This document shows, piece after piece, positions 3,417 through 63,391 of a stretch of DNA of 64,000 nucleotides. The stretch covers positions 31,372,001-31,436,000 of the forward strand of contig JANJGN010000025.1 in the NCBI GenBank assembly GCA_026770705.1, read 5' to 3'. Position 1 is the stretch's first letter, and each line of letters begins with the position of its first letter. The stretch is from Isurus oxyrinchus (lineage: Eukaryota). The position numbers were made by a program, and so were the translations under genes. The notes beneath the pieces are model-generated. The model was not told where the DNA came from, searched no databases, and saw nothing but the letters and a program-made list of their open reading frames with translations.

Positions 3417-3454
3417 GTATTTGTAATCGGAGACCGAGCGTGTGAAAGTATGTG

Positions 3455-28454: not shown

Positions 28455-29000
28455 CCCATGAAGCTTGACTCAGTGGTAGCATTCTTGCCTCTGCATCAGA
28501 GGTTATGGGTTCACGCTCTACTGTCGGACTTGGAGTAAAAAAATTAAGCCAATGTTCCGATGCAGTATTGAGAAATGATTTTACTTTTTTCTGGAAGAGC
28601 TGACTTTCAAAGCAGAAACTAATCTGAGGTCCTGTGTGTCTATTCGGTTCAAGAAGGCAGCTCACCACCGTCTGCTCGAAGGCACCTAAGGGTGGGCAAT
28701 AAACGCTGGTCCAGCCAGCGGCGCCCATATCCCATCAATTAATATGAAAAAAAATGTAAAAGATCAGAGATTCACTATTTGAAGAAGAGCAGAGAATTTT
28801 CCTGGTGACCTGGTCGACACGCGGCCCTCAGCCAAAATGGATTAACTGCCCATTTGTTTTATTTGCTGCTTCTGGGATATTATTGTGTGCAAATTGTTTG
28901 TTGCAATTGTCTCCTTAACAACAGTGATTGCAATTAATTAAATGCCTACGAAACAGCTCGAGGCATACCAAGGACATCAATACAGGTTGTTTAATTCTTT
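28455..29000 (+). mobile_element. tRNA-derived Deu-domain SINE (SacSINE1/AmnSINE1-related), decayed and interrupted by a LINE 3' end
   Basis: A-box-like TGACTCAGTGG (28466-28476), B-box-like GGTTCACGCTC (28508-28518), Deu-like core TGTAAAAGATC...CACTATTTGAAGAAGAGCAG...GTGTGCAAATTG. Colinear with the copy at 54350-54795. Confidence 0.8.
28645..28754 (+). mobile_element. 5'-truncated LINE 3' end nested in the SINE
   Basis: CGGTTCAAGAAGGCAGCTCACCACC...GGGTGGGCAATAAACGCTGGTCCAGCCAGCGGCGCCCATATCCCATC plus an A-tail. Matches the 3' end of the LINE at ~59235-59340. Confidence 0.85.
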
Positions 29001-29514
29001 CCTTGGTTCCATTTGAGTTAAATTTTAATTGGACTATATGGAATCTAGTAAGAACATTTCGCAAGTTATTAGTAAGAATAAAACTCACTATTATAACTTT
29101 TTCTAAGATTCAAAGAATGACGATTGCCAATCTGCCTCAGTTGCCTACTTTAGCCAGTAACCTGTGTGATGTTCTTGCAGGGGAACTGAGGGTTGTGCTT
29201 TGCAACACTTTCCACTCTCTCCAACTAGGAGAGAGACCTGTGAATGTTCTGTAATTACTGTTAATCCGGCAGTGTGGCCGAGAGCTGGGGGGTGGGGGGG
29301 GGGGGGGGGGGACAAGGAATTCCCTGTGCATCAAGGTTGGGCTAGCACCTGTATATGAAGGGATAAGTTAGCCTATATAATGCGGCACGGGATAGACCCT
29401 ATGCATTGCTATGTGCACAACCTCTTCAACAAAGCGCCATACACTAAGTCCCACATTAACATTACACACCAGCACTGGACTGCAGTGAAAACCTATATAC
29501 TGTTAATCAGGCAG

Positions 29515-29670
29515 CATCGGTGAAAAGATAGGCAAACTTAATGACCAAAACGCTAACTCTGTTTCTCTCTCTACAGATGCTGCCTGATCTACTGAGTATT
29601 TCCAGCATTTCCTGTCTTTTTTCCCCTCACATTTCCAGCAACGACAGCATTTTGCTTTTATTTTCCTGTA
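29515..29670 (+). mobile_element. Penelope-like element terminal-repeat remnant
   Basis: AAACGCTAACTCTGTTTCTCTCTCTACAGATGCTGCCTGATCTACTGAGTATTTCCAGCATTT resembles the abundant shark Penelope-like terminal motif (from recollection). Confidence 0.6.
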
Positions 29671-31319
29671 TGCATCTTATATTTCGCAGATTTTTAGAAA
29701 CATTAAACATACCGATTTTTCAATCTCAACCTGTAATCGTTTTTGTTGGAAGAAAGGGAAAATGTTTCCGCATTGAAAATTTAGGGCCAAGAGAGGGGTT
29801 TTAAAACTAATTTACGCTGGATTGCAGTTATACTACATCCTGCGCGAACTCCAGAGAGTATGCGAGTACCCATCGGATGTGAGTTCAGACATCTCATGTT
29901 ACTTGCACTTGAATCAGATCGATGCCGAACCCTAAGTTATACTGCTGGTTTCATTTGGATGAATACTCAAAAGAGATTCGCATTGATTTGAAAGTGATTG
30001 CATGATGGTAATTAAAATTTAATTTCGTATGCTTTCCATCTTTTTTTTGTCAACTTCTATTAAAAGACATTGGTTTATATGATTTGGTGGGTGAGCTACT
30101 GAGTGCCACAGTAACCCCGATCACAGGAGTGTAGAGAACATTCACATGGCATCTGTAGTGTTGCTGAAAAGCGGTTCTCCGTCAAGCACTGCTAAAGTCA
30201 GTGCGTAAAAACAGCGTAAATTGTAATTCGCATCAATGCCTAGTTTCCGTATTCACAGCTGAATTGTAGATCCCAGACCAAATCAGTTCTCTGCAGTTCA
30301 TCTTCAAAGGCTAAGGAAAGGAGCTAAGGCGTATGTTGTTTCCAGAACTGTCTGTCCGATTTGGGGATAATAGAAATATATGTCATGGTTATAAATATAG
30401 CGAAACTATTTGTGTGCATACTTCGTGACCTCCTGACGTCACCATACACACATTAAGATGCTGTGACACGATTGAGCCACTATCAGGACTTTGAAGATGC
30501 CGATAAGAATTAACCCAGCAACCCTCCAGCTTCAATAAAGGGAAAGTGACTGTGTCAAAACTTTCACGCCCAGGCTTCTTCTGGAAATTATGAACTTGAC
30601 TATTTTTCTGTGTATTTTTTTCATGTTAATGCCCGTATAAAACACTATTCCGCACTTCACACGTATTGACTCTTCTGTAACATTATCTTTTGAAGGAAGG
30701 TACATCCCTTCATGTTTCGAGGGCTCTGGAAGTTCAGTGTCTTCTCCCAGACTGCTATTCCAGTGGTGACAGAAACAATGTGCCAATACTAGAAGAGAAC
30801 AGGGCACAGCCAAGCTAATCTACATAACTTTTAATTGTTAGAGAGATTTGATTCACGAAGGTTAGCAATGTATAATTAGTAAATATACATCTCTTTCATA
30901 GCTGTTATAACAATACGATTTTTTATGCGGAATGAAGGCCGTCTGACGGAAACTGCTATTGACATCAGGCGGCTGACCGGCAGTTTTCACAGAAAAGTGC
31001 ACAGAATCATGGGCTGAAATTTCCCCACAACATCGGCGTAAATATAGGAATCCTATACGACGAAATTCTAATTTGATTCATTGTTTCATTATAAACCACG
31101 GCTCCCCATTGTAAACGAGAGCATTGCATATTCTCTATCTCACGTCACTGATAAAAAAAATCGTTAAGTCCCACTTATTAAAAGCAGGATTTGGCTTATT
31201 TAACCATTTTAAACTGGTAACCTTTTAAATAGCTTGTGCCCATTAAAGAATACATCTTGCATTGCACATTATTATTTGAGGTTACAGAATGGAACTAACC
31301 ATTTACCCATTTACCACAG

Positions 31320-31665
31320 TCCTAGTGGTGCAAATTACTTAGTCAGAAGAAGGGTATTCCTGAAACACACACAGACCAGGAAGGCGCATTATACAAGCTG
31401 TTCTCAGCTATGTTAGTGATCAGGGTGCTACAATTGGATAGATTGGGGGTGGGGGGGGGGGGGGGGGGGGGGGGTTGGTGGTGGTGGTTGTCCATGCGTC
31501 CCATTACTGATCGCTATTCGGCTCCCTACACGAAGTGCGTATGTTTGGACTCCGGCTGAGGGCTTAACCTGGTGCGATAGCCCCCCCCGAGGTTGTGTCT
31601 AATGTCAACAATTGCCCTTAAGGCTCACATTTGAATCTCGGCCACTTGGGTGAAATAACGAGGAA
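31320..31665 (+). mobile_element. Ancient SINE relic (family uncertain, possibly AmnSINE2-like) with an internal G24 tract
   Basis: Ordered blocks ACAGACCAGGAAGG, GCTGTTCTCAGC, GGTGCTACAATTGG, CTGATCGCTAT, AGGCTCACAT and GGCCACTTGGGTGA resemble a recalled chondrichthyan SINE consensus. Confidence 0.5.
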
Positions 31666-32729
31666 AACGTGAAGTTCATGGAACCACATCCCAACAAGAA
31701 TGCCTTCAGCAGTGTAGAGACAATTAGCTAGAAACGGAAGAACAAAATATATAGGTGTTTTCGCCCCGAAACAATTACTGTTTGCTCTGTAACACACTTG
31801 ATATGCGCGCCTCTTAGGCACAGTCCTCTGTAAAGTGTAGAAAATCACTTATAGGGTTAGCATGTGAGCACTGTAGCACCGAGGAGATAACTGAATCTGC
31901 AAAATAATTTATGCAAAAATAGCAAGAGGATGATTGACAGTTTAGGGGTAATCACCTCTCATTCAATTAAAATATGTACATTTTTCACATGATTTATTTT
32001 GCAGTAACTACCTCTTGTGCAAACTTGTCAGATAAAAAAAAGTCAGTATTATGCAACAACGTATAGTTACGTTGTCAGTCTCCCCTCAAGTATATTTCAC
32101 CGATTATTTTTTTATGACTACAATTAACAGCTGACTACTAGAGATTGTACTTCGGCAACCAAAAATTAACTTTGAAAATCGGGGAATCCCCGCTCCAATG
32201 TTTTAGGGGAATATTTGTGAGCAGGTTTAAAGTTTTAGATATAAACTTTATAGCCAAAAATTTCAATGGAAGTTTCACTACTGTTTTGAGAGCGCATGTC
32301 CGTCAAGAAGAGAAAAAATAATTGGTGTTAATTTTATATAGAAGTATCACTGAATTATCCATTTCAGGCAACACTTGATATTAAACGTTCCTCCCCACAC
32401 CCAACCGCTGTATGTTGCATACGGTTTTGGAAAGGGTAGCCTACAACTGTAGTTGTCATACACTCATTTTTTCCCCCGAAAAACAACTTTTCTGGTGTGA
32501 AAAGAAATGTGTTTATCAATGAATGTCCTCGGATGGCTCTCTACACCGTCGTGCAAAGAGTCCAGGGACAAAGTAGACGCCACGAACAGACCACTAAGTT
32601 AAGGAGGCCAGCAAAATAACATCCGGATACAAATGACACTATGCAATGGCGGAGAACATTTTACCATTTTAATGAGCAATCCTTCGCCAATGACCAAACT
32701 GAAACCATGCCTTTCCATGAAAATGCGAA

Positions 32730-32810
32730 AGATAAGAAAGGATTGCATTTATATAAAGCGGCTTTTCAGGGACCACGGGGCAAAATAAGGGATTTGTAAA
32801 CAAAACAAGC
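32730..32810 (-). mobile_element. Decayed SINE/L2 3' tail
   Basis: AAGAAAGGATTGCATTTATATAAAGCGGCTTTTCAGGGACC resembles the reverse complement of the SINE tail at ~54745-54793. Confidence 0.45.
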
Positions 32811-33929
32811 CTCGGAAAAATGAAATTTGTTTTTTTTTTAAATATCGTGCATAAAGTCCTTTCGAAGGACAATGACATTGATCAACTTGTAAATTAAAAC
32901 ATTTGCCTTCAATTTCCTCTTGCCAGTCAACATGTTGAAACCTCACTTTGAAGAACCCTTGAAGAGGTTGTGACAGGGCAGATAATAATATTGAACATGT
33001 GAGTGTGGGGCTGTTGAGATATGCAAGGCAGCAAATGAGATCCACTTATTTTTGCCAACAGAAGTTCCCCCTCTTCACGTCACTATTAGTTGCCACATGT
33101 TCAAACACGTTTCTGGTTTCTTTGCTTCAGCGCTTCCTTAAGGCTGGCAGTATCTCCAGCAGGGACCGGGGACATGGAGACAGGCTAAGGCTGTGATCTG
33201 AGATCCGTGCCACGACAGAAAGTTATAACAATATAAGTCTGTTGGACATGCCGGCTGGGCTGTCAGTTTTAATTTGTGCATGACCTACTGGCCGAAAAAT
33301 GGGATAGAAGTGGCAGAAAGTGGGACTGAAGGCTAGTATTATTGCTTTGACAGCTTCACTCATCTAGAAGTAATGCAAAATGCAATTTATATTTATACTC
33401 CCTGACCTCCTGCTCCAAGAGGAAAGTATCTAATGAAGGGCCACTAAGGCAGGGGAGAAGCAGCCTTAAGTTCAGCTGGAATTTGTCTACATTGTTATTC
33501 TTCAACTGTTTAATTACAGTCCAAACGTAAATCAAACACCGAAGAGGGCAATGGAGCCTGAAGTCTTACCATTGTTTCTTTGGGGGGCTTTGGTAGGGCA
33601 GGAAGGAATAGGGAGTCCCAGGGATGTTCTGCAGGATGTCTGCTAAAACTCTTTATTAGATAAATGTTCGAGCAACACTCCTGGCGTTTGTTTTTTCCCT
33701 CGAGACCCAGTCACTGAACTATGCTGACTTTTCACCGTAGCGCCAATGGCCAAACGTTAGATATTCTGGAGCAGCGCCAGGGAAAGGCTTGGGTTCACAC
33801 CAAAGTAAACACAATCATGTCTTCTAGCTTTGTACACACTGAATACGATCTGCAAAATATGTGTTTGCTGCCATCATATGTCTCTTTTTTTTATTCTTTC
33901 TCCCTTTTAATCCACAGACCCGTGCTTCT

Positions 33930-34460
33930 GCTTGTCCTATAATCCCGTGGCATGTGCTGATGACATCACATGATGTCCATTGCCGGCAACATCCAGTCCC
34001 CTGCAACTGTCATTTAATGCTGCAAGCAAATGAAAAATGACTGTGAGACTCACTGGCTCCCAGAAGTGACCTTGAGTATTATTAGAATGACCTCCCATCG
34101 GTTTGACCAGAAGACCTTTGATATCTGCATGAAGAAAATATACGAGTGAGATGCCTCGTCTACCAATAGAAAGGACAATAGTCAGCGAGAACAGTACAAA
34201 GCTAACTCTAAGTTGCAGCTCATTGCTACCAACATTAAAAAGTGATCACTGTACACAACTTGAATCTTTGTTACCATTGCTTTGAGAATTCTGTTTTTAA
34301 TGTACATCATTAGTTTCTTATATTAATTTAAAAAGCCCCAGGCTTATAAAGGAAATATAGTCTCTGTCAGTTGGAAATGAATCTGATAGTCGATAAGAGT
34401 TTAACTCCTCTCAAGGAGCATTTTATTACAGGTTATGGCAAGCTATAGAGTCAGGAAGAA
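33930..34460. promoter_or_regulatory. Candidate CNE: palindrome GACATCACATGATGTC (33962-33977), TGACCTTGA (34067-34075), TGACCT, TCF site CCTTTGAT (34115-34122)
   Basis: High-quality motifs clustered in about 170 bp, followed by a homeodomain-rich block. Confidence 0.5.
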
Positions 34461-37400: not shown

Positions 37401-38319
37401 AGGATAGAATTGCTTTATTTTGGTGGCTAACTAGAAGAAGATAACCTTCGTCTTTTAAAATGAGACAGATGAGAAGCAAGCCCTCTTCCAATGGTCTAAC
37501 TGTAAAATTATACACTGCAGATTACAGTCTCACCGACTCTCACACTCGACTGCACGTATCCAGTGCATATTTTGTATTCAAACAATTTGAAACATTTCCC
37601 TTAATTTAAGGTTTATCAGACATGGTTTATTACAGAATCGAAAGAGGTTTTTTTTGTCTAATTCACGGTTTAGCAGACGACCCTTTCACGAACAAATAAA
37701 AGTGGTTCAAGGTGATTGATGACAATGTTTATTCTGGCCGAGATTTATTGCAGCGACGTGTTAGCATGGAGACGAAAGGTAGCATTTAGCGCGAAGCCTC
37801 TGAGGAAGTTCTAGAGGACAAAAGTTGAATGAAAGACCCGTGCCTTTTACCTAATTCTACAGACTCCGGTCATTTTTATACCTTTGGAAGGTCATTTCAA
37901 AATATACTCCAATGTAGTACTGGAACGGTTAGCTTACACCAGTTCTTGTAACGACTAATATTATAAGTCGTATGTAATAGACGGACATTTCCGACACAAA
38001 TCTAGGGGGATGATGGGAGCATTTTCAGTCTGAGATCTATTGTTATCCATGTTCTATACTCAATGCATTATTAAAGTCACTAAAAAGACATTGCATTAAA
38101 CATTGCATCTTTAAAACTATTGCCAAGAAGAAATCCAACCACCATTATTATGGCATTTCTTTTCAAGTGTTTGGCAATATTTTTACACCACTTCAAAGTA
38201 CGGCTTACACTTTCTATACAATATATGTGATAGCAATGAAAAATACATCCGGAAACATTAACAGCCTTGATTATAGTTATATAAATCTCGCCTTGAATAG
38301 GGACTCCTAAGGCAAACTC

Positions 38320-38765
38320 AAATGCCAAAGCTCAGGGTCAATGAGAATGCACATCTTTCGGTCCTAGTCATAGATTAAAGAAATATGAATTTATTTTAAA
38401 TAGCACATTAGCATGTTGTGTCTGTAAAATCCATCATGGAGCCCAAACAGGGGGAAGGTGGTGTCCGCCTGACCAACTGCACTGCATCTCCATCAAATCG
38501 TTTCATCTTCTTTAGCAAACTTGACAAAACAGAAGAAATATGACACGTGAATTATTAAATAGAGCCCATTTGACTTTTAACCTGCTGTTTTCAGGAAGCT
38601 AAATTTCCGGTATATTTATCTTGATACACATTACAAGGGCTGCGGGCTATTGAGTTGAAAAATTCAGAGGCAGAAGGAAGAGCCAGGGCTCGAGCGAAGG
38701 TCTGCATGAGAAATGGGTCATTTGTCATAGAAAAACGTCAATAAATTAGATAGAATGATGGATAA
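38320..38765. promoter_or_regulatory. Candidate CNE (reverse Pbx-Hox ATCCATCA at ~38429-38436, CACGTG, TAAT sites)
   Basis: Motif cluster. Confidence 0.4.
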
Positions 38766-43700: not shown

Positions 43701-46700
43701 GGCTGCCATAATTATATTTTACAGGGCGCCACTTCTTATCGAGATAAATGTGGGCTAACAAAATAGAGCATTTCCGCATAATCACGAGTTTAAAGACGGA
43801 TACAGATATGATTGTCTGTTTCATAGACTGGCTGATTGAACTATTATTAACTACATTTCAAATGTAAATGTGCACAATAGCCCATCAACAACTAGCGTCC
43901 CATACGAAGGCTCGAGGGAATAATGCAGGGACTGTTGATTGGGTTTACCTCTACCTGAAACACGCGATCGTCAGCCCTGATTCCGTCATAGCAGAGAACT
44001 CACAGAGCAAAAACATGCACAGGTTGCCTCACAAGCGTTGTCCATCTATAGAATAATGAATTGGCCATTTCCATCTAGTGCTCCATTAAGGATAGGGGAG
44101 GTCTGATGAAAGGTTGCAATGGTCGGATGAAGCGATTATAACACACCTTTTTGAACAGTTCTAAATGTCTTTCTTTATTATTGCATAATGATTTTTCTTT
44201 CAGCGTCACCCGTGTAAAAATGCTAATGCATTGGGGGCACCGGATAGAGAATCATTGTGAGCCCAGGCAAGTAATGTGCACTGTTCCGTGCCAAAACATG
44301 CTTACCCTTCTGTAATTAATATATTCATCGCAGGGTTAGAATTTTAATGTATACCTATTGATTTCGTAGCAGAATATTCCATTCATATATTTAACTGTAA
44401 CCGTGAAATGCATGGGCTATGAATTAAATATTAATAAAGAAATAAGACTATCTCTTAAGGTTAAAACAATGTAACCAGTGTCATTGCTGATTTACATCTG
44501 GAATGGGAGCATAAATCAAACTGATGTCATGACTTCATTGAATAAAGACAGGGCTGAGCACCACACACCATTTTATGGTTTTATATTAATGACAGACTTT
44601 AAGTACAGTTAATTCATATTCCATGCAGATTTCCGGTAAATCCAAACTATAACCACTGTGGATGTGATTACTTTTAAAACTCTGCCCTGGTGATAATTAT
44701 GGTGGCCCGAAGTCTGTTAGAGTTTAAATCGCGAAAAGCAGAATGAAATATTACACGGTGGACTGTGTTGTAAACAATCCATGCACTATTTAACACTCTG
44801 TGATTGCAATTCATGTTGTTTCCCCATTCGAGGCAACTTGCTCTTGAATTCGTATCGAAGTGATCCTGCATCCAACCTTGCCTGAGAAAAGTCAAGGGGC
44901 AGACCATCACAAGATAACAAATTTACTCTTCTGTCACTTAAATGTTCCTCCCAAATAAGTTACCTTTATCATGGCCGCATATATACATATGGATCTACCT
45001 CTGTCGAGTGATTCAATGCATTTTCTATGACTCACATTCATTGCCACAGAACTGATAAACTACAGGACTAAGGCATATTAACAGCACCGTGCAAGCTCAT
45101 CTTACTTTTAGAGACATGCTGAAAGCGAAATCAGATCAACTGTGTCCACTGATGTTCAGTTACCCTCGCATCACTATAGGAGTCACTTGATCAACGTGCT
45201 GATGCTCTATCACTCACTACCCCCCCGCCCCCCACCCCTGCCACAACCATCCAACCTTCCAAAATCTCAGCAAAACAAGTATACGCAGGAAACTTCCTGA
45301 TGCAATGAGTAATTGTCAATCTACACGATAATTATCAATACATTTTGCATTTTAGAGCTAGGTTTGTTTCCCTCTCTCTCGGCAACTTATCCGATAGGTC
45401 AGTTGTTATCAGAAGGCTATGCACCTTTAGCATTCTCAGTACTCACTGTGACACGTCCTTTGGCTGATAACGCCGTGTACAGTCATCTAAGTACAGCAAT
45501 TCACACACAGGCCTAATGTTTGCCTTTCGATGTCTTTAATGACAAAAATGTTTGAAAGGCTCCAGGAGGTCCATCAGTTCACCGGGAAAACGTATCTATC
45601 AGCCTAAGTACACAAAGCTCAGAGAGGGCGTCATGGCATATATAATATTGACGCATGACTCAGTGTAGACAGGGTGCAAAGTCGTACCAAGGTGAACAAA
45701 GGGGCAGGTATAGATGTGACACAGTCACATAGGTCAAAAAGTGTTGATAGATACAATGATAACATTAGCTATTAATATTTTGATAATAATTAGGGGATAA
45801 AAGAGAAGGAACAACAAGCCTAATCAGCACTTTATCCACCTGAAGAAAGGTAGGAACGGTTTTAGTGATGCTCTGGCTTTTTATTGGCTGCCTTTGTGTT
45901 TGCATTCGCACATTATGAATCAAAGTATTGCATTTGGTAGATAACACAGGCTGTTAAAAGCAAACAAGGTCAGTGGGGCTATGTAGGGGCAAGGGCATGG
46001 ACATGGTTATCTCAGTTAAAGCAGCAAAAAAATATAGTGTGAAAGATAGAAAATTTTTTAGGTAAAAACATTCTGCATGGTTCAAGAACATAATAGTTCA
46101 ACTGACTTTTTAATCCTATTGAGTTTTCATATGTTTTATATATATAATTTATATGTATATACACACATGTAACTGTAAATCACTCATCTTATGAATAGGC
46201 CAGTTGATCCAAAGATGTAGTCGGATGGCTTACCTTTCACATTGTGTATAGAGTTACTGCTGATGACACCTGTGAACAATAGCACAGTAATGTTGGCAAT
46301 CATTGGCAAAACAGGTGTCATTGACAGAATATTATTTATGACAATAGAAAGTGCAAAAGGCAACAGGTATGCAGTCATTACATGATGTCTAAAGGAAATT
46401 TGAGATTAAGGCAATAAAGTGGTTATGTGCTCTCATCATTTGTTCACCCTTGTCTGCTTGTTATAGTTACATTTGTTCCATGAGCATCAGCTATGGAGAA
46501 CATAATTTTCTAACATGAACTGATGGGCAGCATCCAAAATTTAACTTACTAATGAAAGCCCCCTCCACCGTGAGAAAAGTAACTGCCATTGCAGATGAGT
46601 TTCAGAACCCAAAGCATTGAATTTCTATTTGCTGCTTGCCGATGGAAGACACTAAAAGCTTCCCCCAGAAGCAACATTCACTTAAGGTTTAGGAAGATCT

Positions 46701-46929
46701 GTCACCAGAAAGATGTGCCATAAGGGTAGATTTGCCAGTAAACAAGACCACCAAATGAACCTCAGGAAATAAGAGGATAGAAAAGGCAAAAAGACAGAGG
46801 CAGAAACTGAATGAGAATCTGTGATAAATGTAACAAATCCTTGGTTTTGACAGTGGAAGATCCCTTTCAAAGTCATCTTCTAAAGGAATGTATACTTTGC
46901 TAATATCATTTATGAAAGCAACTAATGCT

Positions 46930-48110
46930 ATCCAGCATAAGTGGGACTGTTCTTACCTGGTTCCATTCTTGTCTACCTAATCATAGCCAGAGAATTACTT
47001 GCAATGCTTCCTCTTGCCCGGTTGCCCTGTTGCCTCTTGTATCCTTTAAGGACTCATCTTTGGTCCACTCCCGTTTCTCATCTGCATGATATCATCTCTG
47101 TGATATCCACAGTGTTAGTTTTTGTACATATGCTGACAACATACAGCTCCACTTCGCAACCGCCTTGCTCGATTCTTCCACTGTTGCTAAATTATCAGAT
47201 TGTTTATCTGAATTCCTGTAATAGCTGAGCAGAACTTACCACCAATTAAATAATGGGAAGACTAAAGCCATTGTTTTCAGCCCCCACTCCAAACTTCATT
47301 CTATAGCTACCAACTCCATCTCTCTTCATGCCAACTGAGATTAAACTAGACCATTCATAACCTTGGTGCAATTTGACCCTGAAGTTAACTTCTGACCACA
47401 TATTACAGCATCACTAAAATTGCTTATTTCCACCTACTTAACATTGCCTGGTATCATTCCTGCTTCAGCTCATCTGCTGCTGAAACCTCCATTTATGCCT
47501 TTGCTATGTCTAGATTTGACTATTGCAATGTATTCCTGGTTGGTTGCCTGCATTCGACCATCCATAACCTTAATGGCAGTCAAAACTCTGCTGTCCAAAT
47601 CTCATCACATAGTAATTCCCATTCACTTATTACCCCTAAGCTCATTGACCTACATTGGCTCCCAGTGAAGCAACATCTTTGAATTTACAACTTTCATCCT
47701 TTTCTTCAAATCACTCCATAGCCTTGCTACCTCCTTATCTCCATAATCTCAACCAGCCCCATAACTCTCCATGATATCTGCACTTATCTAGTTCGGGTCT
47801 CTTGAGCATCTCCAATTTTAATCACTCTGCCATTGGTGGCCACGTGTTCAGCTGCCCAGGCACTAAGCTCTGCAATTCTCTCCCTAAACATTTCCACCTC
47901 TCTACCTCCCTCTATCCTTTAAGATACTCCTTAAAACCTACATCTTTGACCAAGCTTTTGATAATTTGACATAATATTTCCTCACATAGCTTAGTGTCAT
48001 ATTTTTACTTTGCTGCTGAAAAGCATCCTTGAGATGTTTCATTACTTTAAAGTTACTATAAATTACCTTAAATGTAATATATACTTTCAAGGTACTATAT
48101 AAATTTAAGT
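46930..48110 (+). mobile_element. L2-clade LINE, decayed 3' portion
   Basis: Degenerate RT and C-terminal motifs: TATGCTGACAAC (YADD-like), TCTAGATTTGACTATTGCAAT (SR.DYCN), CTACATTGGCTCCCAGTG (LHWLPV), CTCCTTAAAACCTACATCTTTGACCAAGCTTTT (LLKTY.FDQAF). Many frameshifts and stops. Confidence 0.85.
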
Positions 48111-48314
48111 TGTTGTATGTACTGAACATTTTGTTTGAAGTAAATAACTATTTGGCAACTAAGCAAAATATAAGCCTATTGAGTATCTTGCCATTAATAC
48201 TGCATTGACCTAATATTTTAATATACTGACCATGGATAAAAATGTATACCTAAATGAATCATGAATTCCTCACAAACTGCAATTAGATAACCTTGTTCCC
48301 CTGATGTACAAAAG

Positions 48315-48660
48315 ATATCAGAAGAAATAGGAGCAGAAATAGGCCATATGACACCTCGAGTCTGCTCTGCCACTCGATAAGATCATGGCTGATCTGATTA
48401 CCGTCTCAACCCCACTTTTCTGCCTATTCCAATAGCTCTTGAATACCCTTTAGTTCAACCATCTCAGCCTTGAATATATTCAATGACTGAACCTCTGTTG
48501 CTCTCTGGGGTAGATAACTCAAAAGATGCACAACTCTTGGAGAGAAATAATTCCTTCTCATCTCTATCTTAAATAGACAACCACTTATTCTGAAACTATA
48601 TCTCCCTAGTTCTAGATTCCCCCATGTGTGGAAACAGCATTTACCCTGTCCAGGCCCTTA
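48315..48660 (-). mobile_element. CR1 LINE 3' fragment
   Basis: AGAAATAGGAGCAG..AGGCCAT..CTCGAGTCTGCTCTGCCA..GATCATGGCTGATCT, the typical shark CR1 3' end in reverse. Homologous to 57745-58020. Confidence 0.85.
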
Positions 48661-49099
48661 TTTAACTAGTTACATCAGTGCAGGTGCTGTGTGTAGCTGC
48701 TGCCACACAAATGATCAAATTTAGGCAAGGAAATGATCTTAATCATCAGTTATCCCCAATAGAGTTGAAATGTTCATATTTTACTTTATGTTGATGTTTT
48801 AATACAAATAAATTATAACTACCTTCAAAGGAGATTCAGGGGTGCTAATAGTGGCTTATGAGGCTTTTGGCACTGTAAATTCTCAAGTATTTCCAGTACT
48901 GGAGGGCAGGAGATGCGACAGAAGAGGAGCGGGGTTTACATGTAGCAAGTCTTGGTGCTGTCTGAACAGTTACTCCTACTGTCAATCATACAAAAAAACC
49001 TGCAAGAGGAATGCATCCCCAAATCCAAGATATTATGCGGTTCATTAGATTTAGAAGCAAGGTAGACCTTAATGCATTCTTGGAATTTTGACTGTAGTG

Positions 49100-49700
49100 T
49101 ATTATGAACATACGCACAATGATGACAGGCAAAGACCCTCTGGTCCATCCAGACCACCTCCCAAAATTGTGATACTGTGTGTATCACAAGATACACGCCC
49201 TTCATCCCATCCAAAGCTATGCAGTTCCCTGGGAGAGGCAAAAAAGCTAGATAAAAGCACTGGCCAATTTGGTGGAAAGTGTCTGGGGAATTCCTCTCCT
49301 CCTCATCTGGCTAATCAAAACTAGTCCAGGAGATCCCTTTGTCCCTGAATTCCCTGAAGTATGCATCTTTTGTAAGAGGTGATGTCTGCACCAACCAGAA
49401 ACTGGTCCAGCTTTTGCTTGAAGGAATTGTGAATCAGCATTGGCACATGAGAGGGCAGCTATTCCAGAGGTTCAGTATTCTTTGGAAGAAGAGCCGTCTT
49501 CTTACATCAGACATAGATCTGGCCTTATGTGCCTTAAAACTGTGACCTCTGGTCCCCCCATGACCTATTTAATTGGGAACAAGCTGTCAGTCAGAATTCA
49601 ACCTATTTTCTTCATCACCTTATAAACCTCAATCAGATCACTCCTGCATCTAGGCATTTCTGCAATGTCGTCCCAACTCTATTAGCCTATCCTGCACAGA
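49100..49700 (-). mobile_element. CR1 LINE 3' fragment of a different, long-3'UTR lineage
   Basis: Reverse CR1 ORF2 C-terminal traces (GCAGCTATTCCAG = WNS.LP; TTATAAACCTCAATCAGATCAC = DLIEVYK) plus an extended 3' UTR. Confidence 0.75.
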
Positions 49701-50117
49701 ATGACACTGGGGAATTCTGCAGTTTAATTGGTGAAAATTCCAATAGGCCCTTTTTCAATCTCAAAATATGTATTGTGCATGGAGCTCCCACCCCAAACTG
49801 GTACATTAGAATAGCCCAAAATCTGCCCTCAAGCCTTATTAATATTATTTGGGTGAGCTGTCAGTTCATATCACATTTCCATAGGCATCTTACCTATTTC
49901 ATTAAGTTTTATACCTTACTTTCAGTACTGTTTTTATCAGATTACTAAAAAGTAATGGAGAAATTCAAATATTTTAAAATTACATCTAAATGATCTAATT
50001 AGTTTCTGTTTTCCTTGTTACTTGTTTTGTACTTAGCTACTTTTTTTCTGACTGTTGATTTCCAATTCACAGCTTTTGTTCTTGTTTTCAAATGATGCAT
50101 CTCTTTCCTTTTCATCC

Positions 50118-50270
50118 TCCATAGAGTATAGAATAGAATGGAATAGTACAGCAGGATGCCATTCAGCTCACCAAGTCTGCACTGGCTCTTTCAAAGAGCA
50201 ATCTCATTAGTTCCATTCCCCGCCCTCTTCCTTTCCCCATATCCCTGCAATTTTTACTCCTTTAACTATG
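50118..50270 (-). mobile_element. CR1 3' end fragment
   Basis: ATAGAAT-type tail repeats followed by GCCATTCAGCTCACCAAGTCTGCACTGGCTCTT...TTTCCCCATATCCCTGCAA. Confidence 0.7.
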
Positions 50271-50999
50271 TAATGATGCCAAAAGATTGCTTACTGTAGA
50301 GTTCACAGGCAAATTTTGAGCTTGATAGTGAATTGGTTACATTCACATAAACAAAGGGTGGTTATTAATAGTAATATCATTATCCCGTTACTGTTTGTTG
50401 GAGTTGATGCACGCAATCCTTTCCTCTGTCTTACTCAGAGTTACTCAGTCACTAAGCGTGGGGTAAATGGATTCCACGATCTGTTTTGCCAGTTCATGGC
50501 CCTTTTCACATTTTCCCATGATTTTTAGAGCTCCTTGTGTTGGAGGAGTAGTGTAGAGATTAGTTGAGAGGAAGAATGCCAGGCTTTTCACCGAAATTTC
50601 CTGGGGGAACATTTGCTGGATGGCCCAGCCCAGGGGATGTCCTCAATTGCCTGCTCCCCCAAAGAAATTTGAAGATGATTGGAACCTTGCTGGCCAGAAT
50701 ACCCTGATCTTGCAGGACTCTCATTTCAAATCATGTGTTCGTATATCTTAATGGGGAGAAGAGATATGAAAAATGTTTTGGCTCAGGTAGTTGAGTTAAA
50801 TGTAGGTGATCACTGAGTAACATGACAGAGTTTGAGGCATAGAAGAGGAAGCAGTTTGCACAAAATCAAGGTCCACATATTTATTCCTTTCTGAAAGATG
50901 AAGGGTGAGTTAGCAAAGGTAAAGTGGAAAGAGGAATCACACAGGATTGTCGTTAATGGGCTGCATGGTAAAGAAATATAGATTTCTGCTGCTTCGAAA

Positions 51000-51160
51000 C
51001 ACAAGAATGGGAATAGCATGTTCAGTCCTCAAGCCTGTTTCTCCAGCCAATTAGATCATGCATCTCCACCCCACTTACCCACTTTTGATCTACACACATT
51101 ACCTCACTTACATAATAAAAATCTAGCAATTTCAGTTTTGAAAATTTCTATTGACTAAAC
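51000..51160 (-). mobile_element. CR1 3' end fragment, decayed
   Basis: TTCAGTCCTCAAGCCTGTTTCTCCAGCCAATTAGATCATG...AAAAATCTAGCAATTTCAGTTTTGAAAATTTC. Confidence 0.55.
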
Positions 51161-51242
51161 ATCAAGTTTGTTTTCTCACCTTGGTAAAATAGATAATCTA
51201 CATTATTTATCTTAACAAGCTGCAAGCTAAATAATTTTGATG

Positions 51243-51653
51243 TTTTTATTCTTTCATGGGGTGTGGGGCATTTGATGCCCATACCTAATTGTCCTTAAAT
51301 GGAATGGCATGCTAGACCATTTCAAGGTGAATGGAATGGTTTGCTCAGCATTTAAGAGAGCAATTAAGAGTCAACCACACTGCTGTGTGTCTGGAGTCAC
51401 ACGTAGGCCAGACCAGGTAAGGATGACAGATTTCCTTCCCGAAAGGATAGTAGTGAACCAGGTAGGTTTTCACCACCATCATTGACAGTTTCATAGTCAC
51501 TATTACTGAGACTAACTTTATATACAAGATATATCAATTGAATTTAAATTTCAACAGCTACTGTGGTGGGATTTAATCCCCTGACCCCCAGAGCAACAGC
51601 TTGGGCCTCTTGATTACTAGTCCACTTCCATTATCACGATACCACCATGTCTC
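51243..51653 (-). mobile_element. tRNA-derived SINE sharing its 3' tail with the LINE at 58168-59340
   Basis: On the - strand: head ...GGACTAGTAATCAAGAGGCCC...GGGATTAAATCCCACCAC, body ...CCTTACCTGGTCTGGCCTACGTGTGACTCCAGAC...GTGGTTGACTCTTAATTGC, tail AAGGACAATTAGGTATGGGCATCAAATG...CCCATGAAAGAATAAAAA. Confidence 0.8.
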
Positions 51654-51745
51654 TTTTCATCATGCTATGAGATACAGTACAAATAACCATTCATAAACTG
51701 GTCAATTAAAAATAAAAAAGAAAAGGCCTTATGCTCCACTGAAGC

Positions 51746-52430
51746 TTTTTAAAATTCTTTCACAGGATGTAGGCATTGCTGGCAAGGCCAACATTTATTG
51801 TCTATGCCAAATTGCCCTTGAGAAGATGATAGTGAGTTACTTCTTGAACCATTGCAGTCCATGTGGTGTAAGTACACCCACAGTGCTGTTTGGGAGGAAA
51901 TTTCAGAATTTTGACCCAGCAACAGTGAAGGAATGGCGATATAGTTCCGAGTCAAGATGGTGTGTGACTTGAAGGGCAATTTGCAGGTGGTGGTGTTCCC
52001 ATGCATCTGCTGCTCCACTCTTTTGAAGTGGTAGAGGTTGCGGGTTTGGAAGGTGGTGTTGAAGAAGCCTTGCTGAGTTGCTGCAGTGCATCTTCTAGAT
52101 GGCACACATTGCTTCCAATGTGTGTCGGTGGTGGAGGGAGTGAATGTTTAATCCGGTGGATGGGGTGCCAATCAAGTGGGCAGCTTTGTCTTAGATAGTG
52201 TCAAGTTTCTTAAGTGTCGTTGGAGCTGCACTCATCCAGGCAAGTAAAGACTATTCCATCACATTCCTGACTTGTGACCTGTAGGTGGTGGACAGGCTTT
52301 GGGGAGTCAGGAGACAAATTACTCACCTCTCGCCAAATTCCCAACCTCTGATGTGCTCTTGTAGCCATAGTATTTATGTGGTTAGTCCAGTTCAGTTTCT
52401 GGTCAATGGTAAACCCCAGGATGTTGATTG
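51746..52430 (-). mobile_element. CR1/L2-superfamily LINE 3' fragment (same family as 58168-59340)
   Basis: Reverse complement is colinear with ~58670-59340. ORF-track peptide MHCSNSARLLQHHLPNPQPLP resembles MHCRNSPRLLRHYLPNTQLLP. Confidence 0.9.
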
Positions 52431-54349
52431 TTACCTTTCTCTCTTATAACTTATTTATAATCAAACTAGCCAAATACTTTTCATCTTTATTACTCACCTG
52501 TACCTTATTCAAAGCATCATTCTTTCAGTAAATACGTCTTTTCTAATTTATGTTTTAAATTTATCTTTTACTAATTTATATTTCTGTCCTCCACTCCTAT
52601 TTTCTGGCTTATTGGATAATTCTGGATTTGATTTATACCATTTAGTATTACATATAATTACAAGGATCCCGTTAAATGCTTCATATTCAACCATAGAACC
52701 TTTGCTTCTCTTACTTTTTCTCATAGTTCATCTCAGTAATACATTGAAAATGTCTTCCAGTACATACACTGAGTATCTTTTATGTGGAATGGTATTCAGA
52801 ACTGAACATTGTACTTCAAATGTGCACTATCTGTTTATTGTAAAGCCTTACAGCACATTTGTACTGCACCTTTAGTGTCACTATAAAATGCTTTCCACTT
52901 CACATAACTTCTAAAGTTGCAGTATAAATCTGAAGTACAGTCTAACCACATTCCAGAGAGCATCAACATGAGAGCCTCAGTCGGATGTCATCTCACATGT
53001 CTCGAGTTTGACATTGTATGGAATTGAATTCCAATGTAATATCCAGCTTGATTTAAAAAGCATTTGCGAGGGCGGCCTTTGGGCCTGAGGACTCTTTTAA
53101 CCAACCCGGAGTCGATAAAGGATGGTATGCCTCAGCTCATAGGCCTTACCGACCTTTAGGCGTATGCAAGGTCCCATGTGGGCAAAGAAATGGGAACTCT
53201 CAGCCTAGAGAAATCCCTTACCTGCCATTTTCCCCTCAGCATTAGTACATTATGAAGGATGGGTAGAGACTCTGCCCTTCTAAGACTGAGCAGGAATTCC
53301 CAGATTAGGTTTGGAGCTGACGTATCTTGCTCTTGGCCTCCTTCCAAAATAACTCTCTGGATTTCCATTGGAATCAATTCAGCCTCACTATGTTTGCACC
53401 CTCAGAAGTTACGTGCTAATTTAATTGCCCATAATACATCATGTAACCCTGCCATCCTGTCCTTGAATATAGAAAGTTTGAATATTAGTTTACCAAGTTA
53501 TGAATGTGCTTTATAATGAACATAATTATAGCATCTTAATTTAATTTGTAAGGTTTACTTATTCTTTAATTTTACCATCATTTTTAGTTCCAATTTGCTC
53601 TCTAACTGTGCATTAACCAGCATGATTCAGAAGTATTTTTCCATATTATCGATCCATTTCTAGAATCCTTTTTGGATCTAAAATATTGTTTAAAGCTTAT
53701 TTTAGCTAATTCATTTACTTCTCTCAGAGATTCTCTCTCCCTTTTTTCTTCAGGAGCTTTGAATTCTTTTTCTTTTGTGATTTCATTTCAATTGAGCTAT
53801 TCTCCTATTTAGAGACCACTAGTTTCATGTCTTTTCATTACTCACCTTGAATGTTCAACAAAATATTTAAAAAATTGTTCAATTTATCCTTGACACATAT
53901 TCTTAATTTATTTCTTTTTCAAATTGTTGCTCATTTTAAATTCCTAGGTTTTTAACTCCTCCTTACTGCTTTTGAGTGTTAGATTATTTAAAATGAATTA
54001 TATCGAGGTTAGGAGTCCAGAACAGGTTCCACTACTTCCATATTATGGATGCAGGTTTCTCCCAGTGGAGTTCACAATATATCAAGTTATAAAAAAAAAT
54101 CTGGTATCTCATTCACTAGTTCTGATCTGATACTTTATTTCCAGTCGGGCATATTTCCAGTTTATACTGAGCTGGTTAAACACACATATTGAGTAATTAC
54201 ACAGTCTTCTTACCTCATCATAAGTTCATCTTCTCCACGCTTGAAGAGAGCATAAGTTGGAGACTCGAGTATTGTTACACTATCTCTGACCCAATGAATA
54301 TGTGGGCTTTGGAAGTTTTGTGATTATATACTGTCATTACCTTTCTAGC

Positions 54350-54795
54350 AGTAGTTCTGCTGGTAGCACTCTCTCCTCTTGTGTCAAAAAGTTGTAGTTT
54401 CAAGGTCCACTCCAAAGACTTGAGCACAAATTCTGGTCCAATATTTCAGAGAGGGAGGGGTGTACTGTTGGAGGTGTCATCTTTCAAACAAAATTTTAAC
54501 CCGTTTGCTCTGTTAAGTGGGTGTAAAAAATCCCACAGTCTTATTTGAAGAAAAGCAGGGGTGTTTTCCAAGGTGTCCTGGCCAATATTTATATCTCAAC
54601 TAATAGCGTTAAAAACAGATTGTCTGGTCAATATCTGACTGCAATTTGTAGAATTCTGTTATGTACAATTTGGTTGCCTACATTTCCTACATTAAACATT
54701 GATTACACTTCAAAAGTACTTAATTGGGTGTAAAGCATTTTGGAATGGCCTGAGATTGTGAAAGAAGCTATATAAATACAAGTTCTTTCTTTCTA
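54350..54795 (+). mobile_element. Deu-domain SINE (SacSINE1-like), near full length
   Basis: TGGTAGCACTCTC...CCACTCCAAAGACTTGAGCAC...TATTTGAAGAAAAGCAGGGG...GGTGTCCTGGCCAATATTTAT...CACTTCAAAAGTACTT...GCTATATAAATACAAGTTCTTTCTTT. Confidence 0.85.
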
Positions 54796-54851
54796 CATAT
54801 TGAGATCTTGTTCTCCACCTGTTTATTAACTGAAGCCAGATTTTGTGACTT

Positions 54852-55528
54852 TCACAGAATCACAGTGCAGAAGAGGCCTTTTGGCCCATCGAGTCTGCAC
54901 GGACACGTGAGAAACACCTGACCTACCTACCTAATCCCATTTACCAGTACTTCGTCCATAGCCTTGAACATTATGACGTGCCAAGTGCTCATCCAGGTAC
55001 TTTTTAAAGGATGTGAGGCAACCCGCCTCCACCACCCTCCCAGTGCATTCCAGACCGTCACCAACCTCTGGGTAAAAAAGTTTTTCTTCACATCCCCATA
55101 AATCTCCTGCCCCTCACCTTGAACTTATTCCCCCTTGTGAATGACCCTTCAACTAAGGGGAACATCTGCTCCCTATCCACCCTGTCCACACCCCTCATAA
55201 TCTTAGACACCTCGATCAGGTCGCCCCCTCAGTCTTCGCTGCTCCAACGAAAACAAGCCAAGTCTATCCAACCTCTCTTCATAACTTAAATGTTTCATCC
55301 CAGGCAACATCCTGGTGAATCTCCTCTGCACCCCGTCCAGTGCAATCACATCCTTCCTATAATGTGGCGACCAGAACTGCACACAGTACTCCAGCTGTGG
55401 CCTCACTAAGGTTCTATACAACTCTAACATGACCTCCCTACTTTTGTAATCTATGTCTCGATTGATACAGGCAAGTGTCCCTTATGCCTTTTTTACTAAC
55501 ATGCCCCCCCCCGCCTTCAGAGATCCCA
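54852..55528 (-). mobile_element. CR1 LINE 3' fragment, relatively young
   Basis: ORF 55203-55430(-) LYRTLVRPQLEYCVQFWSPHYRKDVIALDGVQRRFTRMLPGMKHLSYEERLDRLGLFSLEQRRLRG is the classic CR1 ORF2 C-terminus. 3' end with CACAGAAT-type tail. Confidence 0.95.
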
Positions 55529-56619
55529 AGGCTATCATTTGGTTTCTTAATTTCTAAACCCCTCAGAATATGTAAAATTTGACTTTCTATTTTTATGAAA
55601 ATCCTGTATCCTTGCACACTGAATTCATTCTCATCTTCCAGAGTGAACTATATTCCTGTATGATTTTATTATTAGCTATTGCTGCGTTTGCCTCTTATAC
55701 AAGCATTATTGAATACTTCTGGTGTTTGGGTACAGATAACTGATTCTATTTTTTAGTCTTTTCTTAGGTAATTGGCTCTCTGTGTTTATTTCCTTTATTG
55801 TTTCATACTACCTTCACCCTCTTTTAGTACACTTTCTGACCTTGGTTTATCTGTATTTAAAAGTTTAAACTCTTCACATCTAAATGCACTGTAAATGGGG
55901 CACAATGGTCTCCTTAACATTAACAGCTAATCTTTCTGATCATGTCATGTGCAAGCCCTTGTTATAATTCACTAGGCAAAGAAGGAATCTGGAGCCAGTC
56001 TTTCCTTAACTTGGTTTATTCACATAACGCAGAGGACGAGGAATGGACATGGACACAGGCTCCCTTTTCATCCCCCTATACAGGTGAAAACCAGTTCTTA
56101 TATATACTTAACAATAATACCCTAATCTTTGTCCAATTAGTAACAGCTGTTCTCACGTACAACAAAAAAAAGCATGCACTTCCTTGTAACAGTATTGCAA
56201 CATTAACAACACTTTCTTATGTACTCATCTAATGAAAGACTCACCGTCAGTGTCCTTTAAAAAAAGAAATAGATACAAGAATTGCTGGTAACTTCAATAA
56301 CCCCTATCCTTTCTGTTCTCATTAATTTGGGGAGTAATTTTATTTTGTTTTTTTCTCATAATCACAAGGCTCTCCATATGCCTGTATGACACACCTTCTA
56401 GTTACTAGGAAACTGGCACAATAAAGATTCCAACAACAAGCAAATGGAAGCTTGTATCTCACAGAGTACATTGGCTCCATTTGCGCAACAATTTCGGGAT
56501 TCTTCAAATTTGCAGCACTTCATTAATTTGGTCCAGTTTTCAGGGAAAAACAAAGCCTATAATTGTCCACTGACTCAATCTGACATCCTTTCAGCCCACC
56601 TGGAGGAATGGACATTACG

Positions 56620-56732
56620 CATTTGGGCAGACAAGTGGAATTGAGGTCAAAGATCTGCTATGATCTAATTGAATAACGCAGCAGGCTTGCAGGACCATAT
56701 GGCCTTTTCCTGCTCATATTTCTTATATTCTT
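56620..56732 (+). mobile_element. CR1 3' end fragment
   Basis: AAGTGGAATTGAGG..AGATCTGCTATGATCTAATTGAATAACGCAGCAGGCTTGCAGGACCATATGGCCTTTTCCTGCTCATATTTCTTATATTCTT. Confidence 0.8.
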
Positions 56733-57683
56733 AATATATATTTTAAGTCTAGTAGCAATCATTGTGGGTTTTTTCTTCCCCTCTCCTTTCACAATCATGC
56801 ACTCTGCCAATCACAGATTTAGTAAGTAATAACACAGTATGTCTTGGCACTTATTCTAAGCAATGTGTTTATAGGTGAAATTTTAAGGTTTATTCCTGTT
56901 GTAACTTTGCTGAATGTCCCCAAGGAGTGGAATGCTGCAGGCTCAAGTGTGCAGATGCTACCATCTCATGACACAGAGCAACATCAACACAGGTACATCC
57001 ACACTATAGGAAAAAAGATCTAGAATTAGACTTAGAGCAAAGTACCGGACAAAACATAGATCATGAGTGAAAAGGACTAAGTGGCATTGGCAGTAAAGAA
57101 ATAGAATAGAATTGGTCAGTAGCCTGCTCCAGGCTACTCTCAGCTACAGGTGACATTCTGTACTTGTTAATAAAGAATGCTGCTTTCTGAGTGCCATGAA
57201 TTCATGCGGACATTTGAGAGAGTGCACATGGCATGTTCTGGACTTTCTGCAGCACAGCCCCCTTAAAATCAATTCTAGGCACAGCTGTAGGTTCTCTTGG
57301 AGAAGTATTTACTGGTACTGGAAAGATCCTGGGTTCCAATGTCCATAAATCTGTCCAGTCTAGATACACCATGCTGTGGAATTGGCCGAACAGTATGCTG
57401 GCATCAAGATTCACTTAGCTTATCGCAGTCTTCTGGCCTGCTCCCGCATGGATTACTGTGGATGCAAAGATATTACCCAGCATGATTGGAGTTAGGTCAA
57501 GCTGGGTCTGAGGGTGACTCTTTATGGCATGCACCCAGTCTGGCCGAAATGGATAATGCAGGGTTAGGCCGCACAACGCTAGTGCAGGCAATTGCCTGCT
57601 GCCAGAGGCTTGATAAAACTGTCCCTTTTACTAAGAGAATCCAAAAGTTGATGCCGAGGAAGAAGGTGGAGCATCTGCCTCAG

Positions 57684-57725
57684 AAATTCCAAATTCCAAA
57701 TTTCAAATTTCAAATTTCAAGTTCC
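57684..57725. repeat. 7-bp tandem repeat (AAATTYC) x ~6
   Basis: AAATTCC AAATTCC AAATTTC AAATTTC AAATTTC AAGTTCC. Confidence 0.85.
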
Positions 57726-57744
57726 CAGCTTCCTAGCTAGAAGA

Positions 57745-58020
57745 AGAGGAAGAAGAAGAAATATTAGCAGGAGCAAACCATCTGCTCCATTGAGCCTGCT
57801 CTGTCATTCAATATGATTATTGCTGAACTTAGGCTTCAGCTCCAGTTTCTTGCCCATATCCCTTGATTCCCTGAGAGAACATCTGTTTGTCTCAGCCTTA
57901 AATATACTTAATGCGGGAGCATCCATAGCTCTCTCGGATAGAGAATTCCAAAGATGCACAATTCTTTGAGTTAAGAAATTTTGCCTCGTCCCAGTCCTAA
58001 TCCTTATCATGGGACTGTGT
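57745..58020 (-). mobile_element. CR1 LINE 3' fragment
   Basis: ORF 57804-58010(-) RQNFLTQRIVHLWNSLSERAMDAPALSIFKAE matches the CR1 ORF2 terminus. Confidence 0.9.
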
Positions 58021-58167
58021 TAGAATGGACCCACTAAATAGTTAGCTTTATGGATTATATTGTAAAGCAAATACTGGAATTGGATAGAGCCAACCCACTG
58101 ATCTTTCAATCTCGAATAAAATAATCAATTGATCTTCTGAAAATATCAAGCACATATTAATTGGTCA

Positions 58168-59340
58168 GGTGAGGTGAGGTGAGAGTGACTGCCCTTGACA
58201 TCAAGGCATCATTTGACCGAGTATGGCATCAAGTCATCCTAGCAAACCTAGGGTGAATGGGGATCAGGGGGAAAACTCTCCGCTGGTTGGAGTCATACTG
58301 AGCACAAAGGAAGATGGTTGTGGTTGTTGGAGGCCAGTCATCTCAGTTCCTGTACGTCACTGCAGGAGTTCCTCAGGGTAGTGCCCTTGGCCCAATCATC
58401 TTCAGCTGCTTCATCAATGACCTTCCTTCCATCATAAGGTCAGAAGTGGGGATGTTTGCTGATGATTGCACAATGTTCAGCACCTCAGATACTGAAGCAA
58501 TCCATGTCCAATGGTAGCAAGACCTGGACAATATCCAAGCCTGGGCTGACAAGAAGCAAGTAACATTTACACTACACAAGTGCCAGACAATGACTATCTC
58601 CAACAAGAGAGAATCTAACTGTCACCCCTTGATGTTCAATAGCATTATGATCACTGAATCCCCCACTATCAACATCCTGGAGATTGCATTGACCAGAAAT
58701 TGAACTGGACTACCCATATAAATATTGCAGCTACAAGAGCAGATCAGAGGCTAGAAATCCTGTGATGAGTAACTCACCGCCTGACTCTCCAAAGCCTGTC
58801 CACCATCTAAAAGGCATAAGGCAGGAATGCGATGGAATGCTCTCCACTTGCCTGTATGAGTGCAGCTCCAACAACACTCAAGAATCTTGACACCATCCAA
58901 GACAAAGCAGCCCACTTGATTGGCACCCCATCCACAAACATTCACTCCCTCTGACACCGACGCACAGTGGCAGCATTGTGTACCATGTACAAGATGCATT
59001 GCAGGAACTCACCAAGGCTCCTTAGACATTACCTTCCAAATACACAACTGCTACCATCTAGAAGGGCAAGGGCAGCAGATACAAGGGAACATCACCAGCT
59101 GGAAGTTCCCCTCCAAGCCATTCACCATCCTGACTTGGAAATATATCACCATTCCTTCACTGTAAATGGATCAAAATCCTGGAACACCTCTTCCTAACAG
59201 CACTGTGGGTGTACCTACACCACAGGGAGTGCATTGATTGAGGATGGCAGCTCATCACCACCTTCTCAAGGGCAGTTGGGGATGGGCAATAAATGCTTGC
59301 CCAGCCAGTGACAGCCATATCCCATGAATGAATAAATAAA
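58168..59340 (+). mobile_element. CR1/L2-superfamily LINE, 5'-truncated, with a disrupted reverse transcriptase
   Basis: ALDIKASFDRVWHQ, AGVPQGSALGPIIFSCFINDLP and GMFADD motifs. Stops and frameshifts. 3' end ...CCCATGAATGAATAAATAAA. Confidence 0.95.
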
Positions 59341-63377: not shown

Positions 63378-63391
63378 TGAGTGGACCAGTG

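Follow-up and report, generated by a model that had tools for sequence, protein, structure and literature searches.

A nested SINE–LINE repeat with unlike CpG states in a CpG-retaining domain of the Isurus oxyrinchus genome

The left 45.7 kb of a 64,000-nucleotide stretch of the shark Isurus oxyrinchus genome (assembly GCA_026770705.1, contig JANJGN010000025.1, positions 31,372,001 to 31,436,000 of the forward strand; hereafter, the window) retain CpG dinucleotides that are depleted in the remainder. Inside this domain, a Deu-type short interspersed element (SINE) at 28455–28998 is split by the 3′ tail of a long interspersed element (LINE), and the two layers carry opposite records: the tail holds six CpGs where good outside copies hold none, whereas the older SINE has lost each CpG site that could be assigned by eye to its ancestral Deu core. 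Reading from DNA sequence, we tentatively favor a two-phase history, in which the SINE would have been methylated in the germline and decayed, its methylation would later have been lost, and the tail would then have arrived and been spared. The initial annotation of this DNA had proposed that transposable elements (TEs) landing in the domain long escaped methylation-driven deamination, the chromatin of the domain overriding TE silencing. That proposal appears partly supported: half right as an observation, overstated as an interpretation and, for the larger element, reversed.

A CpG-retaining domain with a sharp edge

Positions 1–45687 have a CpG observed/expected ratio (o/e) of 0.68 at a normal GC content (39.2%), and positions 45688–64000 are CpG-depleted bulk DNA with many repeats (o/e 0.21; GC 40.4%). 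The change-point in CpG o/e falls at 45687 (2-log-likelihood interval 45632–45996; log-likelihood ratio 153), and the edge is sharp, with consecutive 500-bp bins at 0.58, 0.39 and 0.07. Beyond it, o/e is 0.21 in repeats and 0.19 in non-repeat DNA. Within the domain, o/e declines from left to right (0.80, 0.67, 0.58); the left edge lies beyond the window or fades inside its first 2.5 kb.

Reduced deamination of methyl-cytosine is expected to leave a CpG step at equal GC content, a flat GpC and a smaller TpG/CpA excess inside. Across the edge, CpG differs about 3.5-fold while GpC stands at 1.12 inside vs. 1.05 outside, and the TG+CA o/e is lower inside (1.17 vs. 1.28). In simulated equilibria, an o/e of 0.68 corresponds to a CpG substitution multiplier of about 2, and an o/e of 0.20 to a multiplier of 13. 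Low CpG deamination across the domain is thus supported by composition. The left 45.7 kb may well be a long-lived, germline-hypomethylated domain of the methylation-valley type, where CpG deamination exceeds background about 2-fold instead of about 13-fold; we hold this view jointly with the two-phase history, and just as tentatively. It appears to be an ordinary low-methylation domain, in itself an expected feature, in which the shielding of mobile DNA was partial or late.

Methylation valleys are generally poor in TEs. A tally limited to within-window matches and remnants of open reading frames (ORFs) gives 544 of 45,687 bp of repeats inside the domain vs. 6,308 of 18,313 bp in the rest; it omits several repeat-like, single-copy pieces of the domain. 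The domain as a whole does not have the composition of a CpG island (GC >50%, o/e ≥0.6), which is reached only by six overlapping 500-bp windows starting at 3051–3351. Positions 3050–3850 form the sole island-like stretch (GC ≥50%, o/e ≥0.6) and contain long C and G runs, as well as what we take to be a YY1-like motif near 3490–3500. On the other side of the edge, large repeat remnants begin about 1 kb past it with one near 46950 that looks L2-like by eye.

One nested element, two CpG states

The LINE tail and the Deu-SINE that had been put forward as two controls inside the domain are parts of one nested element. The 5′ part of the SINE (28455–28644, + strand; head and start of the Deu core, three CpGs) aligns to 54344–54516 with a score of 246 (maximum of 200 shuffles, 174), and the 3′ part (28752–28998, +; five CpGs, three of them in one 12-bp patch) aligns to 54521–54794 with a score of 397 (maximum of 200 shuffles, 219). 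Both parts thus align in order to a single outside SINE (54344–54794, +; two CpGs), and between them lies the 101-bp LINE-type tail (28645–28745, +; six CpGs), 77% identical to 59243–59334 (E = 1e-12). A short A run follows the tail to 28754, about seven SINE bases are gone, and no target-site duplication was seen around 28645–28745. Because the tail lies between two SINE parts, it is the younger of the two, and six of the 14 CpGs of 28455–28998 belong to it. The Deu central domain was recognized by eye, as an unscored comparison with five published rows, at 28597–28644 plus 28755–28812 and at 54474–54580; motifs like the A and B boxes of a possible tRNA-derived head were likewise seen by eye only.

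The tail is homologous to the 3′ end of a LINE that encodes reverse transcriptase. Its 77% match belongs to a 5′-truncated outside LINE (58186–59340, +) with a broken reverse-transcriptase frame (PF00078, E = 2.3e-11, at 58302–58514) and seven CpGs in 1151 bp, none of them in its tail. A second outside copy (51748–52436, −; tail at 51752–51853), which the initial annotation did not list, is 79% identical over 655 bp to 58665–59308, with a Kimura two-parameter distance of 0.21 at non-CpG-marked sites. Two further outside relatives were found: a SINE-like element (51240–51660, −) that ends in a copy of the tail with part of it deleted and has a head-like 5′ end, presumably resembling a SINE family, and a more distant relative of the LINE 3′ end (63718–63995, −; E = 4e-9 to 59068–59354), which keeps CG at the site matching 28719.

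The six CpGs of the inside tail (28645, 28669, 28677, 28704, 28719 and 28722) compare with none in 103 bp and none in 102 bp of the two good outside copies, which are of similar divergence. In the 59.3-kb copy, each of the six has a TG or CA counterpart, in line with the TpG/CpA-type changes that the initial annotation had noted there, and the sequences it quoted are present at 28644–28726 and 59291–59316. At 28719 and 28722, one outside copy has TG and the other CA, so the ancestor carried a CG that the inside copy retains; only these two of the six are provably ancestral. At the remaining four, both outside copies have the identical base pair, and the sites are unpolarized because no consensus for the LINE tail was found in the literature. 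They may be gains inside, whose persistence would likewise point to low deamination.

To fit the rate, we applied a dinucleotide model to three copies, with 680 columns from the two outside LINEs as calibration, and left out the part-deleted 51.25-kb tail and the distant 63.8-kb tail; the likelihood is composite and therefore approximate. The fitted CpG multiplier was 0.14 for the inside tail and 13.1 outside, and the inside profile fell by 1.8 units at 5 and by 3.0 at 8, placing the multiplier below about 6. The inside tail did not have a shorter non-CpG branch (0.13–0.17 vs. 0.09 and 0.15 outside), and in simulations at the outside rate and an age of 0.13, six or more CpGs arose in at most 0.4% of 6000 runs. 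Low deamination in the tail is thus supported by these fits, and for this fragment the idea of escape from deamination stands.

For the SINE, it does not. The claim of many CpGs at 28455 dissolves once the tail is removed, since the SINE proper holds eight in 437 bp (o/e 0.46), whereas the domain averages 11.75 over that length. This count is as low as that of 12% of 844 domain windows and exceeds all but 0.6% of 338 outside windows. The outside copy does have few CpGs (two in 447 bp; one-sided P = 0.051, or 0.14 with the 12-bp patch taken as one event), but it seems better preserved, by eye, at its 3′ end only, and the pair cannot polarize its own differences. The eight inside CpGs face TG or CA at three sites, other bases at four and a gap at one. 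Three of them lie in the patch at 28815–28826, which is GC-rich where the outside copy is AT-rich and differs at most positions; it may represent one complex replacement. The same patch also looks by eye like a hagfish SINE segment in PMC7245038 supplement 1, possibly by chance. Because an unmethylated copy of this age is expected to gain 7–9 new CpGs by ordinary mutation, the eight observed give no sign of retention.

To polarize the SINE, we aligned it by eye to five Deu-domain rows from PMC7245038 supplement 1; the rows represent AmnSINE1 and four families of hagfish and carry 7–13 CpGs over the span by hand count. At eight Deu CpG sites, the inside copy now reads TG (28601), CA (28608), AA (28617), TG (28625), TG (28633), TG (28755), TG (28780) and TG (28803): none is kept and seven of eight are TpG or CpA. 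At the same sites in order, the outside copy has CA, CA, TT, a deletion, CG, TG, TG and AG, keeping one of seven (54502, an ancestral site lost by the inside copy). The 107-bp Deu core contains no CpG inside and one outside. For this core, as read by eye, CpG decay is thus alike on the two sides, the outcome that the initial annotation had named as refuting its proposal, and general escape inside the domain is not supported. All five rows have CG at 28601, 28617 and 28803, four rows and the outside copy have it at 28633, and four rows have it at 28755; confidence is lower for the other three. From the window alone, three sites vary around CG (28601, TG vs. CA; 28633, TG vs. CG; 28803, TG vs. 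AG). A ninth site, 28769, was left out of the counts (GA inside, hence lost; CA outside; CG in the four hagfish rows). With a pair distance of 0.42, of which 0.21–0.28 was taken as the inside share, full protection predicts 56–64% site survival, so that retention of none of eight has P = 0.0003–0.0015, and of none of the five firmest P = 0.006–0.017.

Candidate histories of the nested element

We combined the tail, the SINE sites and the new CpGs in a joint fit, with variants for two ages, five or eight sites, and six or eight gains. The two-phase model (methylated, then a multiplier of 1–2 for the last 0.10–0.13 substitutions per site) gave log-likelihoods of −3.3 to −5.8, and the best constant multiplier (about 4–5) gave −5.2 to −8.0. 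Both extremes lose: permanent protection gave −7.8 to −13.2, worst but one, and permanent methylation −9.7 to −12.7.

In the two-phase history that we tentatively favor, a full-length, CpG-rich Deu-type SINE would have inserted in the domain and yet been germline-methylated for so long that its ancestral CpGs disappeared. Methylation of the SINE would then have lapsed locally, returning the element to the state of the domain, perhaps one maintained by a Polycomb/TET-type system, and a few CpGs would have been regained at new positions. Finally, the 101-bp promoterless tail would have inserted into the SINE, remained untargeted for want of a promoter and kept its CpGs. A late expansion of the domain across this position would be an equivalent route to two phases. 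TEs of the elephant shark are hypermethylated in the somatic data of PMC5437953. In this history, the composition step, the nesting with its order of insertion and the CpG states are observed directly; rates and ages come from models, and methylation as the cause, its TE-directed targeting to the SINE, the switch in time and the Polycomb/TET-type maintenance are inferred.

Several points weigh against this history. Its lead over the constant rate, about 2 log-likelihood units, is no more than suggestive, and its switch time is derived from the age of the tail. The comparison rests on one inside locus, as no further inside family member rose above the null in the domain (blastn tiles; nhmmer tiles with a reversed-window null; five family profiles); two pattern scans of genome contigs likewise gave no matches to further copies beyond the window. 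The Deu rows are hagfish and amniote outgroups aligned by eye, not the shark master, and five of the eight sites are not CG in every row. At the domain's own multiplier of 2, the loss is less surprising (P = 0.004–0.018 for none of eight, 0.03–0.08 for none of the five firmest), and the three SINE sites facing TG or CA hardly exceed the two of a GpC control in the window-only pair. The ancestral composition used in the simulations is an assumption. We also tried to argue for a domain older than the SINE. The left flank, 2–3 kb away, has an o/e of 0.71–0.82, too CpG-rich for recovery only since the arrival of the tail (0.42–0.45 expected), but the right flank (0.29–0.59) fits late recovery, and a depleted flank would reach 0.52–0.67 within the lifetime of the SINE in our model. 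Since recovery within that lifetime is possible, the argument is not decisive, and a domain older than the SINE is not established.

Of the alternatives, a single intermediate deamination rate (about 4–5-fold) at this patch is a possible though less probable explanation: the SINE would be old enough for its CpGs to have gone, the younger tail would have been partly lucky, and no switch would be needed. This model has one parameter fewer, and the o/e of 0.44 at 28455–29704 (bottom 4.3% of 812 domain windows) is the equilibrium value for a multiplier of 4–5. That patch, however, was picked after looking and is allowed by the two-phase model as well, and a constant rate loses 1.2–1.6 units on the tail, where the CpG-type columns are CG in six of six.

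Youth or a different master is the loophole in the tail result, because at a true age of 0.02–0.04 substitutions per site, six CpGs appear in 4–34% of simulations at the outside rate. The tail could then derive from another subfamily or from a SINE with a shared tail, its CpGs would be uninformative about protection, and the whole nested element may be methylated. Only 101 bp of tail are present, the SINE-like element at 51240–51660 offers an alternative source class, and column 28733 (CA, CA, TG) hints at subfamily differences. We nevertheless regard this as improbable. The tail has 13 private changes in 99 columns, nine of them away from CpG sites; two of the nine are transversions in the terminal repeat, and eight of the nine also differ, by eye, from a third copy. 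For a wholly methylated element, moreover, the host SINE has 6–8 new CpGs where constant methylation predicts 2.2.

Causes other than methylation (GC-biased conversion, selection on an exapted element, or a rearrangement that imported an already decayed SINE with its flank) seem quite unlikely. Private changes in the tail do run from AT to GC in seven of 13 cases vs. four from GC to AT, and the patch at 28815–28826 is GC-rich, but GC content is equal on the two sides of the domain edge, where CpG shifts with a nearly flat GpC and a lower TG/CA excess inside. Least probable of all is lifelong shielding of both elements by a domain that overrides TE silencing: it draws on a single 101-bp promoterless fragment, on the SINE count of eight CpGs vs. 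two and on up to three SINE CpGs opposite TG or CA (two of them past the published Deu span, hence unpolarized), but the full-length SINE points the opposite way, with no Deu site kept and a CpG count that gains alone predict.

Neighboring features, known systems and meaning

Methylation valleys typically show hypomethylation over many kilobases across tissues and Polycomb/H3K27me3 occupancy, and lie at developmental transcription-factor genes. No host coding frame was recognized by eye among the 71 ORFs of at least 90 amino acids in the window, an Rfam scan of the window returned no family at gathering score, and ARAGORN found no tRNA gene in it. The AU-rich bases from 1 to about 1600 (+) resemble, we assume, the 3′ untranslated region of NR2F2 (COUP-TFII), and in that case the window would flank this gene on its downstream side. 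None of the open-licence papers that we read ties NR2F2 to a methylation valley, and PMC5806489 has no mention of it.

Inside the domain, four pieces (29130–29285, 29500–29645, 31335–31730 and 32730–33060) are single-copy, with o/e of 0.22–0.48, below the domain mean; we take them to resemble repeats. Segments 27680–27730, 27914–28031 and 29801–29905 share a short motif around AGTTATACT, but the match between the latter two was left unused, its score lying inside the null range. A match between 3142–3366 and 63680–63890 was dropped, being driven, by eye, by C and G runs. Another, CR1-like family has six outside pieces (48304–48575, 50122–50272, 50999–51190, 54856–55515, 56568–56735 and 57738–58003) and no inside member; a tail at 56621–56732 looks by eye like the CR1 tails that PMC7245038 supplement 1 shows for the elephant shark, and this tail and the Deu-type SINE both point to a cartilaginous fish. 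A 30-bp tandem repeat (63184–63376; 6.4 copies, 93% matches) lies in the GC-rich (59%), CpG-poor last kilobase, and 131 N at 5608–5738 mark an assembly gap.

The domain resembles the DNA methylation valleys or canyons and hyperconserved CpG domains of PMC5806489, sharing multi-kilobase low deamination relative to flanks at equal GC content, non-island DNA included. Those valleys are conserved in human, mouse and zebrafish and overlap 146 of 190 hyperconserved CpG domains; ours is inferred from sequence alone, at 39% GC and over at least 45 kb. With the TE-depleted, germline-unmethylated CpG islands of PMC12582260, where CpG loss is driven by germline TE methylation, it shares CpG-retaining host DNA that may be poor in TEs, but it lacks island GC content except near 3.05–3.85 kb and holds an old TE that decayed in place. 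CpG substitution in TEs as a gauge of germline methylation, the method that the initial annotation proposed, was used in PMC2265638 (Meunier et al., cited there). The rate there is about 15-fold, vs. 13 fitted for the outside LINEs here; those figures are genome-wide primate averages, whereas the nested pair here offers two layers of time at a single position. In PMC10879037, L1 copies and their insertion sites influence each other, and a TE imposes its methylation state locally, over about 300 bp; those are young L1s measured in human cells, and ours would be a fossil mutational trace. The SINE shares a Deu core, recognizable by eye, with SacSINE1 and AmnSINE1 (PMC5499810, PMC7245038), and is a candidate member of the SacSINE1 family. 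Its distance of about 0.21 per copy is near the 22.4% mean given for SacSINE1-CM and the 75% identity given for whale-shark copies in PMC5499810. Our search of open-licence papers, which leaves out most subscription journals, showed no precedent for reading nested TEs as layers of methylation. What may be new is a small twist at one locus, the nested pair as time layers; the kind of domain, the TE-decay gauge and the local influence between TE and site were already known.

One practical lesson is that the CpG count of an old repeat within a CpG-rich domain reflects gains, not retention, unless sites are polarized and nested pieces removed. If the two-phase history is true, valleys give TEs no wholesale shield, and element type, length or time decides; nested repeats would then make the question testable from assemblies alone, in species without a germline methylome. 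More speculatively, nested insertions in slowly evolving shark genomes could be dated layers of germline methylation: silencing would first have overridden an ancient valley at the full-length SINE and lapsed after decay of the CpGs and promoter of the SINE, and short promoterless fragments would never have been targeted. Should this hold genome-wide, nested pairs would show when, across hundreds of millions of years, valley protection was gained or lost, and which features allow a TE to beat the domain.

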